Positions 1-50,959 of a stretch of DNA of 64,000 nt are shown here, piece by piece (the stretch's first letter is position 1; every line of letters starts with the position of its first letter). The translations under genes were made by a program, and so were the position numbers. Source of the DNA: an uncultured Thermoanaerobaculia bacterium (GTDB lineage Bacteria > Acidobacteriota > UBA4820 > DSQY01); NCBI GenBank assembly GCA_964589625.1, contig CAZPSH010000008.1, positions 1 through 64,000 of the forward strand. The letters are read 5' to 3'. Under the pieces are notes generated by a model that saw only the letters and a program-made list of their open reading frames with translations, was not told the origin of the DNA and did not search any database.

Positions 1-113
1 GGTCCTCATCGAAGGCATCCCGCAAAGGACGTGGTTGGAGGGGGATTCGAAGGGCCGCCCTTTTAACCGATTTGAATCGCGGGGGGGTCCCCGAAGAGGC
101 GCTTAAGACACGG

Positions 114-139
114 GGAGGCCCCTCCGAAGAGGGGCCTCC
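114..139 (-). terminator. Perfect palindromic hairpin GGAGGCCCCTC-CGAA-GAGGGGCCTCC, 32 nt downstream of the peroxiredoxin stop
   Basis: 11-bp perfect inverted repeat with a 4-nt loop read directly from the sequence. It sits just 3' of the minus-strand prx ORF. There is no clear U-tract. Confidence 0.45.
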
Positions 140-170
140 AGGGTGGTCCCGCCTTGGTGGGGATGCGGTC

Positions 171-773
171 CTATTCGTCGGGTTTCCAGACCTTCCACAC
201 GTTGCCGGCGAGGTCGGGGCTCACCTTGAGGGTGGGCTTCCCGGGCTCCCATCCGGCGGGGCACACCTCCGCCCCCTTGGTCTGGCGCACGTGCTGGAAG
301 GCCTGGAGCTGGCGGATGGACTCAGTGACCTTTCGCCCCACGGGTGGGGTGAGGATCTCGATGGCCTGGACGACCCCGTCGGGATCGATGATGAAGCGAC
401 CGCGGACATCCACGCCACCGGCCTCGTCGTAAATCCCGTACACCGATCCGATCTTCCCGCCCGCATCTGACAGCATGGGGAAGGGGAATCCTCCTTTGAC
501 CATCTTGGAGAGTTCCTGCTCCTGCCAAATCTTGTGGACGAACCGGCTGTCCGTGCTGCAGGACAGGACCTGGACTCCCAGCTTCCTGAATTCCCCGGCC
601 TTGTCGGCGACCGCCGACAATTCGGTGGGTCAGACGAAGGTGAAATCGCCCGGGTAGAAGCAGAGAAGGACCCACTTCCCCCGGAAGTCCGACAGCTTGA
701 TGTTCTTGAAGCCCCCCTTGTGGAAGGCCGACGCCTCGAAGTCCGGGGCCTCTTTCCCAACCATCACCGCCAT
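171..773 (-). CDS. 2-Cys peroxiredoxin (AhpC/Prx1 type) with an in-frame TGA (630-632) at the peroxidatic Cys position; predicted selenocysteine peroxiredoxin
   Basis: ORFs 630..881 and 171..620 are in the same frame, separated only by TGA. The joined protein reads ...[24 protein letters not shown]... and matches the FYPLDFTFVCPTE motif. The resolving Cys is present near the C-terminus (VCPAGW). RBS AAGGAGGG lies 5 nt before the ATG at 773. Confidence 0.8.
601..620 (-). ncRNA. SECIS-like mRNA hairpin (8-bp stem UUGUCGGC/GCCGACAA, loop GGUC) starting 10 nt 3' of the in-frame UGA
   Basis: The stem-loop was read directly from the sequence. Its spacing and the G-containing apical loop fit the bacterial SECIS architecture. 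Confidence 0.6.
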
Positions 774-997
774 TCTGCCCTCCTTTCCCGCGGGGCCCGG
801 TGGCCCCACCGCTCCCGCTTCCGGCTTCGGGACCAGAGGCCCCGCAGCCACGGACACGCACCCCTTCAACTTTTCCGTCATGGCACCTCCTATGAGCGTT
901 GAACCTCAACCGTCGAGATCTCCCAGCCCAAGCCTCGTGGCTCCCTGCTTTGGTCTTTCCCCTTCCAACGCACGAATGCCCTCGGAGCCGACCCTCC

Positions 998-2377
998 CTA
1001 GAGGCAGCGCATGAAGGCTACGAGGTCCTTCTTCTCCTGGGGTGTAAGGTGCAGCTGTTGGACGATGTTGAAGTACTCGACGGTGTCCTCCAGGGTGAAG
1101 CAGCGCCCGTCGTGCAGGTAGGGCGGCGAGTCCTTGATTCCTCGGAGAGGGAAGGTCTTGATGGGACCGTCGTGGGCCATCATCATGCCGTTCACCATCT
1201 CTTGTCTGTAGAAGCGCTCCGCCATCAGGTTGTGCATCGAGTTGTCGGTATAGTAAGGAGCGGGATGGCAGCGGGCGCACTGCGCCTTGCCGCTGAAGAG
1301 CCTCTCGCCCCTCAGCTCGGAAGGCGTGGCCTTGGCCGGGTCCAGTTCGCCGTAAATGTTGAGCTTGGGTGCCGGGGGGAAGTCGAGGATCTCCAGAAAC
1401 TCGGCCATGAAGTGCACCTGGCTGCCTCGCTCCAAAATGTTGACTCCTTTCTTCGTGGCCATGCAGATGTCGCCGTCGAAGTAAGCGGCACGCTGTTCAA
1501 ACTCGGTGAAGTCCTCCACCGTCTTGAGTGCGCGCTGGGACCCGAATAGGGCCTGGATGTTGACTCCCCGAAGGGTCGGCGTCTCGATGCGGTGGCGGTA
1601 CTCCTGAGGCCGGATGTCGCCCACCAGATGCGTGGCGCCGTTCGTGTGGCCGTTGGCGTGGCAGTCGAAGCACGTGACCCCCAGCATCCCGTCCGCGCGG
1701 TCCGTTCGCCGGTCCTCCGTCGCGTTGAACTGCTGTTGCGGGAACTGGGTGACCAGCAGGCGAAGTCCTTCAAGCTGTTTTGGGTTCAAGATGCCGTTGA
1801 AGATTTCGTAATAGTTGTTGATGGTGATGAGCCGCCCCTTGGCCACGTCGCCCAAGTCCGGCCTCGTCGTGAGGTAGATTGCCGGCACTGGATCGGGCAA
1901 GACCGCTTCGGGCAGGTCGAAATCCACGTCGAAGCGAGTAAGCCGGGGAAGCAGCTTGAGCATCATGTCGGGGAAGAGCATCCCCCCTTCGGCGTGGTCC
2001 GGGAAGGGAAGCGGCTTGTAGGGAAACAGCCCCTTCTGCCGGATCTGCTCCGGCGTCATCTGGTCGAGCTGGTCCCAGGTCGTTCCGCGGAGGTTCGCGG
2101 TGGGCCCGACGGGCACCGGCTTCCCGCCGGACATCTTCAGGTTCGGGTCGACCTTGACATCGAGGATGTACCTCGAGGCGAGCAAATCGGCGTGTTCCTT
2201 TGCGCGCTCGGGCTTGACCGCCAGGCGGGAGGCCTTGATTTGCTCGAAGGTCGTAATCTGGTCGGTCGGTCCGTAACTCGATACGACTGGCCCCGTTTGG
2301 GCGAACAGCCCGACGACTCCCACGGCCAGGGCCGCGAGGCCGAGCCACGCGGCCTTTGCAAAGATCTTCAACGACAT
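998..2377 (-). CDS. ccp: Di-heme cytochrome c peroxidase family protein with signal peptide
   Basis: Two CxxCH heme motifs (CFDCH, CARCH), an N-terminal signal-like segment and overall CCP/MauG-like sequence. RBS AGGAGGA upstream of the ATG. Confidence 0.8.
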   Translation of the reverse strand: MSLKIFAKAAWLGLAALAVGVVGLFAQTGPVVSSYGPTDQITTFEQIKASRLAVKPERAKEHADLLASRYILDVKVDPNLKMSGGKPVPVGPTANLRGTTWDQLDQMTPEQIRQKGLFPYKPLPFPDHAEGGMLFPDMMLKLLPRLTRFDVDFDLPEAVLPDPVPAIYLTTRPDLGDVAKGRLITINNYYEIFNGILNPKQLEGLRLLVTQFPQQQFNATEDRRTDRADGMLGVTCFDCHANGHTNGATHLVGDIRPQEYRHRIETPTLRGVNIQALFGSQRALKTVEDFTEFEQRAAYFDGDICMATKKGVNILERGSQVHFMAEFLEILDFPPAPKLNIYGELDPAKATPSELRGERLFSGKAQCARCHPAPYYTDNSMHNLMAERFYRQEMVNGMMMAHDGPIKTFPLRGIKDSPPYLHDGRCFTLEDTVEYFNIVQQLHLTPQEKKDLVAFMRCL

Positions 2378-2600
2378 TGGCTTATCCTCCTATTGCAAGT
2401 GCGGCACTCCAAGCTCCCCTGCGTCAGAAAAACGGCTACCTCATGGCTCTGCCTCCTTCTTGACAAGCGGCATCTGACCTTCCAAGCCGCGACCTTAGCC
2501 ACACAGACGGGACACCCGCCACGGCTCAGTCCCTGCCGCCGAGGGGCTCCCGCAATCTCCGGCCCTGTCTCGACGCGGGAGTCTCGGGGACGCCGGGCGC

Positions 2601-2715
2601 CGCCGCCGAGCCAGTACTGGTAGTAGGCCAGCCACTCGCTCGCAAAGGCCCGGTTGAGCAGGTGGAGCAGCTTCTCCACGTCCATGCCGATGATCTCGCG
2701 TCCTCGTGTTCCCAT
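2601..2715 (-). pseudogene. 5' remnant of a DPSL/ferritin-like (Dps-like) gene; only ~38 N-terminal residues are recognisable
   Basis: MDVEKLLHLLNRAFASEWLAYYQYW resembles the DPSL N-terminus (..[20 protein letters not shown]..). The remainder of the ORF is low-complexity junk, and no C-terminal part is found in any frame before ccp. Confidence 0.4.
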
Positions 2716-2799
2716 CGCAACCCTCCTCTCGACGATACCGAGGCGTTCCCGGGCCGGCCTCGCCGGACCGCCCGCTCCGCGCCCAGATTCTGTCCTCCG

Positions 2800-5487
<2,688 letters not shown>

Positions 5488-5968: not shown

Positions 5969-7441
5969 TCAGGCTCCGGGCACTTCCTCGAAGATCTCGT
6001 CCCGGTCCAGCTCCTCCCAATGGAGGATGGACAGGCGACGGATTTCGCGGAAGTACGCGGGGGTCAGGTTGCCGAATCGCTCGACGGCCACGCGAATGTC
6101 AGATTCGATGCGGAGGCGCACCGCCTCCTTCAACCGAAGCCGGAGACGGTCGCCACCCCGGACGAACTCCGCCTCAGGCAAAGTTCCGCCCTCCCGGTTC
6201 ACCCGGATCGTGCCACGGCCCACGGTGGCCCCCGTGGAGACCTGGAGGCCGTCGTTCATGCAGCTCAAAGGGGGTGAGTCGCCCGCGAAACTCAGGACCT
6301 CCACCTCGTCGAGGGCGGCTCCAAGGCGCTCCCGGGCGTAAATCCCCATCTTCACCCCCACGAGGGAGTACGTGCCGAGGTGGCCGTGGAGTTCGTTCGT
6401 CAAGACCGCCGCCCTCCACTCCTCGCCCCCATGGCGGGCGAGGATCCGGGAGACCGACCCCTGAAGGTCGGGACGAAACTGGTCCGGCGAGGTTGGAAAG
6501 GCCGACAGGCCGACGGGGGCCGTTTCGGGCAGTCCTTTCCGTCCGTCCCCTTCGACCACGCGGAGCCAGAGAGATCTACCGGCGGCGTGGTCCCACCGGT
6601 CGAGGGTCCGTACCGTACTCCCTTGAGGCGGATCGAAGGCGGCCAAGTCGGGAGAGGCCGCGCAGAGGGCCACCGCCTCGTCCCAGGAGCGAAAGTGGCC
6701 CTCTCGGATCTTCTCCCGGACGCCGGGGGCCCCGAAAAGGGTCGCCAGGAGCCGGGCCGCAGGCGTAGGAGCGCGCTCCAGGCGCAGGAGAATCCCTTCA
6801 TCGAAGAGAAAGGTCTCCCCTTCCTCCAGGCGGACGGAGAGGACGGGGAGGTCCGAAGCGAAGAGCCGCCGGGCGGAGTCGACGTCCGCATCCCGATTCC
6901 AGCAAGCCTCGTCTCGCCCGGGCGCCGATCCGTAGAACCAAACCTCTCGGATCCCGGGGGCCAAGCTCGGCTCGTCCCGCAGCAGGCCAGCGAGGTTGGT
7001 GGCGGGTCCGAGGCACAGGTAGGTCACCTTGTGTCCCGATGGGGAAAGCAACCGGGCCAAGACGTCCGCGGCGCGCTCGGGGGGGGCGCCGCGGGCCGGG
7101 GCGAGGGAGGACCAGGCCAGGGAGTCCACGACGGCCCTCCACGGTGGGGTTGGAGCGTCCACCGGGGTTCCCGCGCCCACGGGGATTCCCGTTCTGTCCA
7201 TCTGAGCGAGGATTTGCAGGACCCTGCGTGCGGAGATCTCAGGGGACCCGCCCTCGCCCGAGGTCACGACCGCCTCGACGCGGACGGCGGGGCTGGCGAG
7301 AAGAAAGGCCAGCGCGCGAACGTCGTCGGCGGCCAAGTCCGTGTCCACGATAACGGGAAGAGGCCCTCCGTGGGCGGCGGCGGGCCGGGGCAGGAGGCTC
7401 CAGAGCAGGGCGGCGGCGGCGATGGCGAGATTCCTTCGCAT
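5969..7441 (-). CDS. Secreted fusion protein: nucleoside-hydrolase-like (IU-NH) N-domain plus FmdE-like C-domain
   Basis: Signal peptide (MRRNLAIAAAALLWSLLPRPAAA). IVDTDLAADDVRAL resembles the IU-NH DXDXXXDD motif. The C-terminal HGHLGTYSLVGVKMG...SCMNDGLQVSTGATVGRG matches the FmdE-domain pattern, with some cysteines replaced. Confidence 0.6.
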   Translation of the reverse strand: MRRNLAIAAAALLWSLLPRPAAAHGGPLPVIVDTDLAADDVRALAFLLASPAVRVEAVVTSGEGGSPEISARRVLQILAQMDRTGIPVGAGTPVDAPTPPWRAVVDSLAWSSLAPARGAPPERAADVLARLLSPSGHKVTYLCLGPATNLAGLLRDEPSLAPGIREVWFYGSAPGRDEACWNRDADVDSARRLFASDLPVLSVRLEEGETFLFDEGILLRLERAPTPAARLLATLFGAPGVREKIREGHFRSWDEAVALCAASPDLAAFDPPQGSTVRTLDRWDHAAGRSLWLRVVEGDGRKGLPETAPVGLSAFPTSPDQFRPDLQGSVSRILARHGGEEWRAAVLTNELHGHLGTYSLVGVKMGIYARERLGAALDEVEVLSFAGDSPPLSCMNDGLQVSTGATVGRGTIRVNREGGTLPEAEFVRGGDRLRLRLKEAVRLRIESDIRVAVERFGNLTPAYFREIRRLSILHWEELDRDEIFEEVPGA

Positions 7442-7730
7442 GCCTTCAGGCTCCTCCGCAGGCGGGGTTGGCGTCCCCCGAGCCGGTGGGCGCGGGCGGA
7501 AGATCGATCTTACCACCGGAGCCGGGCCCTCCCCTCCTCCGTCTCACGGCTGAGCCCGTTCTCATCTCAAATGTGAGATCGCCTTGGAGTCGAACCGGGG
7601 CCTTTCGGCTCCGATCGAGCAATCGTTCGACCTTGCTTTGTATGGCGAAAGCGGCTGTGACCCTAGCGGCGGATGCTCCTTGGCACACCCCCTGCAATGA
7701 GGTGAGCGACAGGCGAAGGAGGGTAATCCA

Positions 7731-32589: not shown

Positions 32590-33198
32590 CTAGCCTTTTG
32601 CCTGGGCCAGGTTGCGGGCCACCTCGGCCCAGTTCACCGTGTTCCACCAGGCGGCGAGGTAATCGGGACGCCGATTCTGATACTGGAGGTAGTAGGCGTG
32701 TTCCCAGACATCCACCCCCAGGAGGGGCACCTTCCCCTCCATCAGGGGGCTGTCCTGGTTCGGGCGGGCGAGGACCTCGAGACGCCCGCCGGCCCATACG
32801 AGCCACCCCCACCCCGAACCGAACTGTGCCGCGGCGGCGCTGGTCAACCTTTCCTTGAAGGACTCGAAGGAGCCGAACTCCTTCACCAGCGCCGCGGCCA
32901 GGTCTCCCGACGGGGCCCCGCCCGCACCGGGTGCCATGACCTTCCAGAAGAGCCCGTGGTTGGCGTGGCCGCCTCCGTGGTTGCGCACGGCGGTGCGGAT
33001 GGACTCGGGGACGGCGGCGATCTCGCGGAGGAGGTCCTCCAAGGGTTTCTTCTGCAGGTCCGGGTGGCTCTCCAGGGCCTTGTTCAGGTTCGCCACGTAG
33101 GCCGCGTGGTGCTTTCCGTGGTGGATCTGCATCGTGCGGGCGTCGATGTGGGGCTCGAGGGCCTCGGGGGCGTAAGGAAGCGCGGGAAGTTCGTGCAT
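32590..33198 (-). CDS. sod: Fe/Mn superoxide dismutase
   Basis: [28 protein letters not shown] ... [18 protein letters not shown] signature. Confidence 0.95.
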
Positions 33199-33347
33199 GG
33201 ATTCCTCTCCTGGGGTCGAAGGGCGCCCCGCCTCGCTCCGTCGGGTGGGCTTGGGGTACCAGGGCGCATCCCTGGTGCAACGGGTCCGCGGGTCTTCTTA
33301 TTCCTCCCGGCCTCCTGTAAGATGAGCCGCTCGGGGAGCGGACGGAC

Positions 33348-49190: not shown

Positions 49191-50120
49191 TTACGCGTGC
49201 GCCTTTCGACGGATTCTGTATATGGGAGCTTCTTCGTGGAGCTCGGGAGCGCCGTTCTTTTCGCTTACTCGTTCGAAGCGGATGCGCTTCTGCGAGAAGA
49301 GGCTGCAGCCCTCGGTGTGGAATCGCCTGAGGGCCATCCGGCAATACTCCTCGTCGATGTCGATTCCGATGCTGTTTCGGTTGGCCTTCTCGGCGGCGAG
49401 CATCGTGGTGCCTGTGCCCACGAAGGGGTCGAGTACCGTGTCCCCCCAGAATGAGAACATCCGCACGAGGCGATAGGCCAGCTCGAGAGGGAAGGGCGCG
49501 GGGTGGTGCTTTGTCGAAGCCCCGGTGAGCGTCCAGAACTGCTGGAACCACTCCCCGTACTCCTTCTTGCCGATCATGCTGAGGCGGCGCTGCTCTTCGG
49601 TGGGCTTCCGATAGCCGCCGGGCTTGCGCTGCATCAGGATAAACTCGATGTCGTTCTTTATGATCGCGTTGGGTTCGTAAGGCTTGCCGAGAAACTTCGA
49701 GCCGTTTTCCACTTCGTAGTTTGCGTTTGCGATCTTATGCCAAATGATGGGATTGAGATTGTCGAAGCCGATCTTGCGGCAGTTTACGGCGATGTCCGCG
49801 TGCAAGGGGACGACGACGTGGCGCCCGAAGACCTTCCGCGAAAGGCACACGTCCCCCACGTCGCAGACGAGACGGCCGCCGGGGACCAGGATTCGATACA
49901 CCTCCCGCCAAACCTTGTTGAGCTCCTCCAGAAAAATCTCGTATTCCTGGACGTGCCCGAGCTGTCCCTCTACGTCGTTATAGCGCTTGAGCGTCCAGTA
50001 GGGCGGCGAGGTCACGACGAGGTGGATCGACTCATCCCGAAGATACGGCATGGACCGGGCGTCTCCGAGAATGAGACGGTGCGAAGTAGCAGGCTCGGGG
50101 ACGGTGCGAGCATCGGTCAT
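49191..50120 (-). CDS. Beta-class N4-cytosine/N6-adenine DNA methyltransferase (motif IV TSPPY preceding motif I DPFVGTGTT)
   Basis: LVVTSPPYW ... VLDPFVGTGTT motif order is typical of beta-group amino-MTases. The ATG at 50118-50120 overlaps the endonuclease TGA. Confidence 0.85.
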   Translation of the reverse strand: MTDARTVPEPATSHRLILGDARSMPYLRDESIHLVVTSPPYWTLKRYNDVEGQLGHVQEYEIFLEELNKVWREVYRILVPGGRLVCDVGDVCLSRKVFGRHVVVPLHADIAVNCRKIGFDNLNPIIWHKIANANYEVENGSKFLGKPYEPNAIIKNDIEFILMQRKPGGYRKPTEEQRRLSMIGKKEYGEWFQQFWTLTGASTKHHPAPFPLELAYRLVRMFSFWGDTVLDPFVGTGTTMLAAEKANRNSIGIDIDEEYCRMALRRFHTEGCSLFSQKRIRFERVSEKNGAPELHEEAPIYRIRRKAHA

Positions 50121-50863
50121 CAGGTAGCTCGTCCGAAGGCGCTCACGTGCGCGAACAGAGAGCGGGCGAATAAATTGAAAGTCAGCTCCTGCGCGGGCTC
50201 TTGGTAGGCGCCCCTGGCGCCCGTGTCCTTGGCCGAGAGCAGGAAGCACGAGGAGCTGTAGTGTCTCTCTCTCAGAAGCTTCCTGCAGAAGAGCTCGTAC
50301 CGCTTGGCGTAGGAGGCGTTTTTGAATTCGGGAAAGACATCGAAGTGGGGCTCTTTCACCCGGACCGGGCTGCGGGACTTTGCGCAGTCCTCCAGCAGGA
50401 ACAGATAGCCGAGCCAAGGCTTCACGGTGGTATTGAAGGCGCCTTCACGGTAGGCGGTCCAGAGGTCCAAGGCGCTGCCCATGGCCTCCTCGGTGCGGTT
50501 ATTGAAATTGTTGCCGAAAGAAGGCCCGACCTGGGACTTGGCTTCGAGCGCCAGCACGAGCTGGCCGTTTTGGACTACGAGGAGGTCCCACTCTTTGGTG
50601 GGCCTGAAGAACCCTGGCAGCTCGAGGGTCGTCCTGTAGAAGACGTGCTCGGACTCAACCCCCGCTCGTTGGATGATGTCCGCAAGTAGGCGGATAAAGC
50701 CGTCCATCTGGGCGCCGCCCGTGACGGCGGCCCTCGCCCCCTGGTCCTGCCGGCCGGCGGTCTGTTGCCGCTGAGCTTGGCCCGAGCGAGTAGTCCAGTA
50801 GTCTTTCACGGCGGCCGCAACGCGTTGATCAAGGCTTGCGAGGATCTCGTCTAGAGATGCCAT
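50120..50863 (-). CDS. Putative type II restriction endonuclease (PD-(D/E)XK fold)
   Basis: EWDLLVVQNGQLVLALEAKSQ contains a D...E-x-K arrangement. Immediately upstream of, and coupled to, the MTase. Low GC3. Confidence 0.6.
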   Translation of the reverse strand: MASLDEILASLDQRVAAAVKDYWTTRSGQAQRQQTAGRQDQGARAAVTGGAQMDGFIRLLADIIQRAGVESEHVFYRTTLELPGFFRPTKEWDLLVVQNGQLVLALEAKSQVGPSFGNNFNNRTEEAMGSALDLWTAYREGAFNTTVKPWLGYLFLLEDCAKSRSPVRVKEPHFDVFPEFKNASYAKRYELFCRKLLRERHYSSSCFLLSAKDTGARGAYQEPAQELTFNLFARSLFAHVSAFGRAT

Positions 50864-50959
50864 GCGCACGTCCCCCCTTTGCTCACCGTAAGCGTATCAC
50901 TCTCTCAGCTGGCCTTGTCCAGAAGCTCGCGCACCTTCTTTTCGTTGGTGAGGGCCTTG

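Follow-up and report, generated by a model that had tools for sequence, protein, structure and literature searches.

Does the TGA codon that divides a peroxiredoxin gene near one end of the 64-kb window (the whole stretch of DNA analysed here) end translation, or is it decoded as selenocysteine (Sec) at the catalytic site of the enzyme? Translated on the minus strand from ATG 881 to the TAG at 171, the frame contains this TGA as its only interruption. A mechanical list of open reading frames gives two same-frame pieces, 630..881 (83 residues) and 171..620 (149 residues), in agreement with an earlier sequence-only reading, which had described two frames parted by nothing but the TGA. That reading had proposed recoding of the UGA as Sec and had foreseen that gene callers would split the gene, as the Logan gene caller indeed does, reporting proteins of 83 and 149 residues. 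The evidence presented below, which comprises the match to a PrxU family model, the conservation of the TGA, a covarying hairpin behind it, purifying selection and the normal use of TGA stops elsewhere in the window, bears out the proposed recoding. With high confidence, we assign positions 881-171 to an intact prxU gene, which would encode a thioredoxin-dependent peroxiredoxin of the AhpC/Prx1 type with Sec as its peroxidatic residue. The in-frame TGA itself almost certainly encodes Sec at the catalytic site. The features of the locus are collected in Table 1.

Table 1. Features of the prxU locus, in window coordinates
Feature	Position	Strand	Description	Basis
prxU coding sequence, long form	171..881	minus	236 codons plus TAG at 173-171; predicted Sec is codon 84	translation, NF040737, Pfam AhpC-TSA and 1-cysPrx_C
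In-frame UGA, predicted Sec84	630..632	minus	peroxidatic residue of P77-x3-T81-x2-U84	sequence and alignment
Putative SECIS core hairpin	601..620	minus	8-bp stem UUGUCGGC/GCCGACAA, GGUC loop (612-609)	fold and covariation
Shine-Dalgarno 1	884..892	minus	UAGGAGGUG, for ATG 881-879	sequence, duplex energy
Shine-Dalgarno 2	779..785	minus	AAGGAGG, within the coding sequence, 5-nt spacer to in-frame ATG 773-771	duplex energy, family conservation
Cys8 codon	858..860	minus	N-terminal extension, motif G-C-V-x-x-A-x-G-P	alignments
Cys74 codon	660..662	minus	LCFYPGD, ten residues before Sec, family signature	alignments
Cys207 codon	261..263	minus	canonical C-terminal resolving Cys (EVCPAGW)	4fh8 alignment
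G+C-rich hairpin	114..139	minus	perfect 11-bp stem, GGAGGCCCCUC-UUCG-GAGGGGCCUCC	fold

When the Sec site is read as Cys, the protein matches the Pfam families AhpC-TSA (E 3.6e-38), Redoxin and 1-cysPrx_C. Against the NCBIfam equivalog NF040737 (peroxi_PrxU) the read-through protein scores 380.4 bits, with a cut-off of 270 and coverage of profile positions 3-232 of 233, and the runner-up, the AhpC model TIGR03137, reaches 191 bits and stays below its own cut-off of 272. Among solved structures, typical 2-Cys peroxiredoxins (Ancylostoma Prx-1, 4fh8, and human PRDX2, 1qmv; E about 1e-51) come closest. In the alignment, the FVCPTE and EVCPAGW motifs of 4fh8 fall exactly on the FV-TGA-PTE and EVCPAGW of the window protein, which indicates that the TGA takes the place of the peroxidatic Cys codon and that the resolving Cys is present.

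The likeness to typical 2-Cys peroxiredoxins, AhpC included, extends over 180 alignable residues and comprises the P-x3-T-x2-(C/U) motif, a conserved Arg and the C-terminal EVCPAGW. As in the Prx1/AhpC type, the VCP motif around Cys207 lies about 120 residues past the peroxidatic residue; the codon of that residue is TGA and not the TGY of a Cys-type enzyme. Besides Sec in place of Cys at the peroxidatic site, the window protein differs from typical 2-Cys enzymes in having Cys74 instead of Phe and, after the active site, LSAVADK, a stretch shaped by the putative SECIS hairpin, instead of EIIAFSD. Judged by these features, the window protein would work like a 2-Cys peroxiredoxin, yet it is to be filed under PrxU.

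When prokaryotic genomes were scanned, one for each species, 80 related loci with 67-89% identity were retrieved, which span Myxococcota, Acidobacteriota, Thermodesulfobacteriota, Chloroflexota, Ignavibacteria, Zixibacteria, Spirochaetes, Actinomycetota, Synergistota and others. The nearest relatives are found in Polyangia, Myxococcota and Acidobacteriota MAGs at 83-89% identity, the top match having 89%. At the aligned codon, 79 of the 80 loci have TGA and one (L016) has TGC. A chance nonsense mutation was rejected, since the same TGA recurs in these 79 loci from many phyla. The alignments to PrxU-type and Cys-type homologues that had been recommended as a check thus agree, in the NF040737 score, the shared TGA and the matching 4fh8 motifs, with the claim that the TGA falls exactly on the peroxidatic Cys codon.

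The same conservation weighs against an error of sequencing or assembly and against the idea that TGA has been reassigned throughout the genome (code 4 or 25); neither has anything beyond the general possibility in its favour. The Logan assembly of SRR13007709, which is independent, matches window positions 26-3574 with 0 mismatches and so has the same base at this site. In an exact-protein look-up, this 3.5-kb contig was the only public contig carrying genes of the window, and a 40-mer from the left end of the window had no exact match in JGI metagenome contigs. TGA is, moreover, the commonest stop in the window, where it ends 22 of the 36 other predicted genes, and the G+C content is 65-71%; both point to the standard code and speak against reassignment. 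With the Logan identity, the 79 TGA loci and the ordinary TGA stops, error and reassignment are refuted for practical purposes, and we assign them a negligible probability.

If the UGA is decoded as Sec, as we prefer, the message should carry a SECIS element. The hairpin listed in Table 1 starts 9 nt past the UGA (at +10) and has a 4-nt loop at a distance of 17 nt from the UGA; the bacterial SECIS consensus has 16-37 nt between UGA and loop, the range used by bSECISearch. The minimum free energy fold amounts to -17.4 kcal/mol (z = -2.5), and a lower stem possibly extends the hairpin to 593-628. An Rfam scan of the window gave no match at the gathering score.

Covariation was assessed in an ungapped alignment of 48 nt from the TGA (A1) that included all 81 sequences. 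Standard pairs are formed in 87% of the cells of the eight-pair stem, and both-sided changes occur at five of the eight pairs; pair 16/29, for example, appears as U-A, G-C or A-U. Cells with double changes number 72, compared with 25 in shuffles, and the covariation score of the stem is 0.285, compared with 0.098 in shuffles, a value reached by none of 500. As a control, the 3' arm was slid by 1-3 nt, and the covariation signal was lost. By its sequence and predicted fold, the hairpin has the makings of a typical bacterial SECIS, the general features of which have been described (PMC1088965).

Within the loop, bases G22 and U23 are invariant in the 81 sequences. The flanking columns 21 and 24 (A1 numbering; window 609-612) switch jointly: 43 sequences have G...C, 37 have A...U and one has G...U. 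The two columns are the synonymous third positions of an Ala (GCN) and a Val (GUN) codon, and their joint switch suggests a closing interaction across the tetraloop.

The prxU hairpin resembles the SelB-bound SECIS of Escherichia coli fdhF in lying within the coding sequence as a stem-loop that directly follows the UGA on its 3' side, and in presenting a small apical loop with a G (GGUC or AGUU in PrxU, with G-U invariant). It differs from the fdhF type in its short, perfect 8-bp stem, in which no bulged U was identified, and its binding by SelB is putative.

The hairpin also bears on another explanation, in which the UGA is read through without Sec, as Trp or Cys, either by near-cognate suppression or by Cys carried on tRNA(Sec) when selenium is scarce. 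Public catalogues might seem to favour Trp: among the best 120 database homologues (P0001-P0120), the Sec position is written W in 86, G in one and R in one. The W-written entries come mostly from short metagenome contigs and are apparently gene calls made under a genetic code in which TGA is a sense codon, not measurements. Simple suppression would have no use for a conserved hairpin with an invariant G-U, and the sole codon other than TGA found at the site specifies Cys (TGC), never Trp. By established peroxiredoxin chemistry, Trp is also unable to serve as a peroxidatic residue, which we count against such decoding. We consider non-Sec read-through extremely improbable. Given the 86 W-written entries, many Sec-peroxiredoxins would thus be stored as Trp proteins in public catalogues; the names given to public homologues also include "Selenocysteine-containing peroxiredoxin PrxU" and "thioredoxin-dependent peroxiredoxin".

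Cys takes the Sec position in three settings: the L016 locus, an AhpC paralogue in L028, and all solved 2-Cys peroxiredoxins. L016:3142, from an Acidobacteriota MAG (JBMFRA010000021.1), combines the TGC codon with a fully retained hairpin, UUGGCGGC-GGUC-GCCGCC, and looks like a recent Sec-to-Cys conversion. In L028, a Cys-type AhpC (L028:2242; TGT codon, FVCPSEIIAF, no hairpin-forming sequence) lies about 900 nt upstream of a Sec-type prxU (L028:3142), and the two genes, as read from their codons, make up a natural pair of Cys and Sec paralogues.

Downstream of the TGA, dN/dS over 152 codons ranges from 0.04 to 0.17 against six close relatives, pairwise values that are blind to a very recent loss of function on the window lineage alone. 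Values in this range argue that the segment 3' of the TGA is translated in frame, and by this measure it is under strong purifying selection.

A recent loss is what a pseudogene would entail: Sec decoding would have been lost, or the gene never expressed, and the TGA would end translation after 83 residues. Consistent with this possibility, Sec machinery was not seen in the 64-kb window, where ARAGORN found no tRNA and no tRNA-Sec, and about 44 predicted proteins from most of the window, when searched against Pfam, included no SelA, SelB or SelD. Gene callers return two fragments, and a neighbouring ferritin-like gene appears as a truncated remnant, a sign of some decay in the region. These points have to be set against a frame that is fully open for all 152 codons past the TGA, with low dN/dS throughout the comparisons, against a perfect SECIS stem with an intact GGUC loop, and against catalytic residues and start signals that are all in place. 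We judge the pseudogene very unlikely.

An intact Sec-encoding prxU remains the preferred reading, and from the intact gene and its SECIS the organism probably has the Sec trait. The window was also scanned for TGA codons with coding-like third-position G+C on either side. This read-through scan returned prxU and one ordinary gene junction only, and no further selenoprotein candidate in the window.

Based on established knowledge of Sec decoding and on homology, a simple model can be put forward for the synthesis and catalytic cycle of the enzyme. The UGA would not be read as a stop; the hairpin behind it would act as a bacterial SECIS and recruit SelB-GTP-Sec-tRNA(Sec) to the ribosome, where Sec would be inserted at the A-site UGA as residue 84. 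The Sec84 selenolate, which would share the P77-x3-T81-x2-U84 pocket with the conserved Arg, would attack peroxide and be converted to a selenenic acid. In the window variant, this acid would probably be resolved by Cys207 of the partner subunit, yielding a selenenylsulfide bond that thioredoxin would then reduce. Thioredoxin-dependent peroxidase activity is presumed here from the family name and homology only.

The retention of the resolving Cys had been noted from the start, and it holds for the window protein (VCPAGW), although most of the family lacks it: only 18 of the 81 relatives have Cys at the canonical resolving position, and the others have Thr, Met or Ala. Since the resolving Cys is missing in 63 of the 81, most PrxU proteins would have to be resolved in another way, and Cys8 and Cys74 are the obvious candidates for alternative resolving thiols. 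Cys8 is conserved as Cys in 72 of the 81 loci, the remaining nine having no N-terminal extension or a truncated one, and it is invariant in 68 full-length database proteins. Cys74 is present without exception (81/81 loci and 68/68 proteins), and the aligned residue in 4fh8 is Phe.

Cys8 lies upstream of the start that the sequence-only reading had chosen, ATG 773 behind a strong ribosome-binding site. That site is confirmed (AAGGAGG with a 5-nt spacer), but ATG 773 does not stand as the sole start, as ATG 881 has a conserved extension and a Shine-Dalgarno sequence of its own. The ribosome-binding site ahead of ATG 881, AGGAGGTG, is as strong as the one ahead of ATG 773: the duplex energy of Shine-Dalgarno 1 with the anti-Shine-Dalgarno sequence is -11.5 kcal/mol, and a strong Shine-Dalgarno sequence is found at the N-terminal start in 86% of 58 loci. 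In 72 of the 81 loci, the open frame reaches back past the Met ahead of VGKxAPDF, and the upstream extension follows the motif M-x-E-x-K-x-G-C-[VA]-x-P-[AT]-x-G, succeeded by a variable linker. In the window protein the extension comprises 36 residues, including Cys8. Together, the conserved Cys-bearing extension and the strong Shine-Dalgarno sequence at ATG 881 argue that the long form (236 residues) is real, and ATG 881, not 773 alone, is most likely where the gene begins.

The internal signal is conserved as well. Shine-Dalgarno 2 has a duplex energy of -12.1 kcal/mol in the window, and the family mean is -10.7 kcal/mol, compared with -3.65 kcal/mol elsewhere inside the coding sequence. A canonical Shine-Dalgarno sequence embedded in the coding sequence precedes the internal Met in about 77-78 loci from many phyla, with a spacer of 5-9 nt in 68 of 76 loci, and matches to GGAG/GAGG are sharply concentrated between -15 and -7 before this Met. 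The sequence sits in differing codon phases and encodes KEV, GG, RR, EEV, PEV and others. That its position is kept despite these differences in phase and amino acids indicates that selection acts on the nucleotide signal, and such selection would imply a second in-frame initiation site that gives rise to a short form of 200 residues. ATG 773 is therefore a candidate internal start, with long and short isoforms as a possible outcome.

An AlphaFold model of the homologue P0092 shows a confident peroxiredoxin core, with residues 1-32 below pLDDT 50. The N-terminal arm is thus predicted to be disordered, and the model is neutral on the role of Cys8. Such an arm, with about 36 residues and an invariant Cys, is an addition that typical 2-Cys peroxiredoxins do not have.

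A more speculative extension of these observations would be that the prxU family makes two proteins from one frame, a long form from ATG 881 with the Cys8 arm and a short form from ATG 773 without it, and that Cys8, possibly together with Cys74, acts throughout the family as the thiol that resolves the selenenic acid or serves it as a relay. We offer this proposal tentatively and regard it as rather doubtful at present. If true, a resolving role of Cys8, possibly with Cys74, would explain why most PrxU proteins can dispense with the canonical C-terminal resolving Cys. No description of the two-start and Cys8-arm arrangement in PrxU was found in the literature searchable here.

At the other end of the gene, the G+C-rich hairpin of Table 1 lies 31 nt past the prxU stop and is terminator-like, without a U run. 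The fold of positions 95-175 has an energy of -38.2 kcal/mol (z = -2.7). Scans for consensus terminators and promoters in window positions 1-1100 found nothing; the hairpin goes unreported by the terminator scan because it has no T tract.

Knowledge of Sec-peroxiredoxins dates back to 2001, and these proteins rank with the more common selenoproteins of bacteria. Together with the TxxU motif and the SECIS, they are textbook examples in the field, and for that reason the window gene opens no new question; it is another member of the known, curated PrxU family. A Sec-peroxiredoxin was validated experimentally in Eubacterium acidaminophilum (Sohling et al. 2001, as listed in a 2026 review, PMC13188914), and the TxxU motif of these enzymes is documented (PMC1088965; also PMC13188914). 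Genomes available in 2006 contained 12 Sec-peroxiredoxins, three of them in the myxobacterium Anaeromyxobacter dehalogenans (Zhang et al. 2006, PMC1794560). In view of these 12 early cases, the curated NF040737 model and the named database homologues, the description of Sec-peroxiredoxin genes as rare and only sporadically annotated was overstated.

PrxU of Eubacterium (Peptoclostridium) acidaminophilum shares with the window protein the AhpC/Prx1-type fold and a UGA-encoded Sec at the peroxidatic TxxU, a likeness drawn from the NF040737 family model. With the NF040737 family, the equivalog cut-off of which it passes, the window protein has the Cys74 signature and the N-terminal Cys in common. 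It differs from the E. acidaminophilum enzyme in its source, an uncultured bacterium of high G+C content (about 68%), from 63 of the 81 relatives in keeping the resolving Cys of VCPAGW, and from one PrxU subgroup in having U-PTE where that subgroup has U-ATE. The Sec-peroxiredoxins of A. dehalogenans and other Deltaproteobacteria (PMC1794560) are alike by description, belonging to the same selenoprotein family in related high-G+C lineages with the Sec trait.

The main result is thus one of annotation: the locus is to be called as one selenoprotein gene, neither as two fragments nor as a pseudogene, and its presence makes the organism a probable user of Sec. Of interest for peroxiredoxin mechanism and selenoprotein annotation are the two conserved starts with the Cys-bearing arm, the G-C/A-U switch in the tetraloop and the catalogue entries in which Sec is stored as Trp.

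The surroundings of prxU contain further genes related to peroxide. Directly upstream, on the same strand, positions 998-2377 (minus) encode a protein of 459 residues that has two CxxCH motifs and an N-terminus of signal-like character; it belongs to no Pfam family, and its resemblance to MauG/di-haem cytochrome c peroxidases is weak and scores below the cut-off. In a Thermodesulfobacteriota MAG (L049:274-1572), a copy with 65% identity is likewise found directly upstream of prxU. A KatG catalase-peroxidase with two peroxidase domains occupies about 2800-5037 in the open reading frame 2800-5484 (minus). This frame, of 894 residues, is probably over-long, as it stays open over about 150 codons ahead of MSNASKCPV..., the likely start. 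Farther from prxU, an Fe/Mn superoxide dismutase is encoded at 32590-33297 (minus). A neighbourhood with KatG, the MauG/CCP-like di-haem protein and, farther away, superoxide dismutase fits a role of prxU in peroxide defence.

Between the di-haem protein gene and katG, the first 38 codons at 2602-2715 (minus), within the open reading frame 2368-2715, are about 82% identical to the start of ferritin-like genes, after which the similarity ends. These genes are intact, encode 176 residues and lie near prxU in L051 and L044; the identity to L018 is 68%. The frame 2368-2715 has no Pfam or NCBIfam match, and 2602-2715 looks like the truncated remnant of a ferritin-like gene.

Two other loci in the window were recorded. 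At 49191-50896 (minus), an XhoI-type restriction endonuclease (PF04555, E 7e-92) adjoins an N6/N4 DNA methylase, and the two constitute a type II restriction-modification pair; the G+C content of the 48-52 kb region is slightly lower, at 0.656. The single open reading frame 5969-7543 (minus) joins an inosine-uridine nucleoside hydrolase domain to a C-terminal FmdE domain, an unusual fusion.
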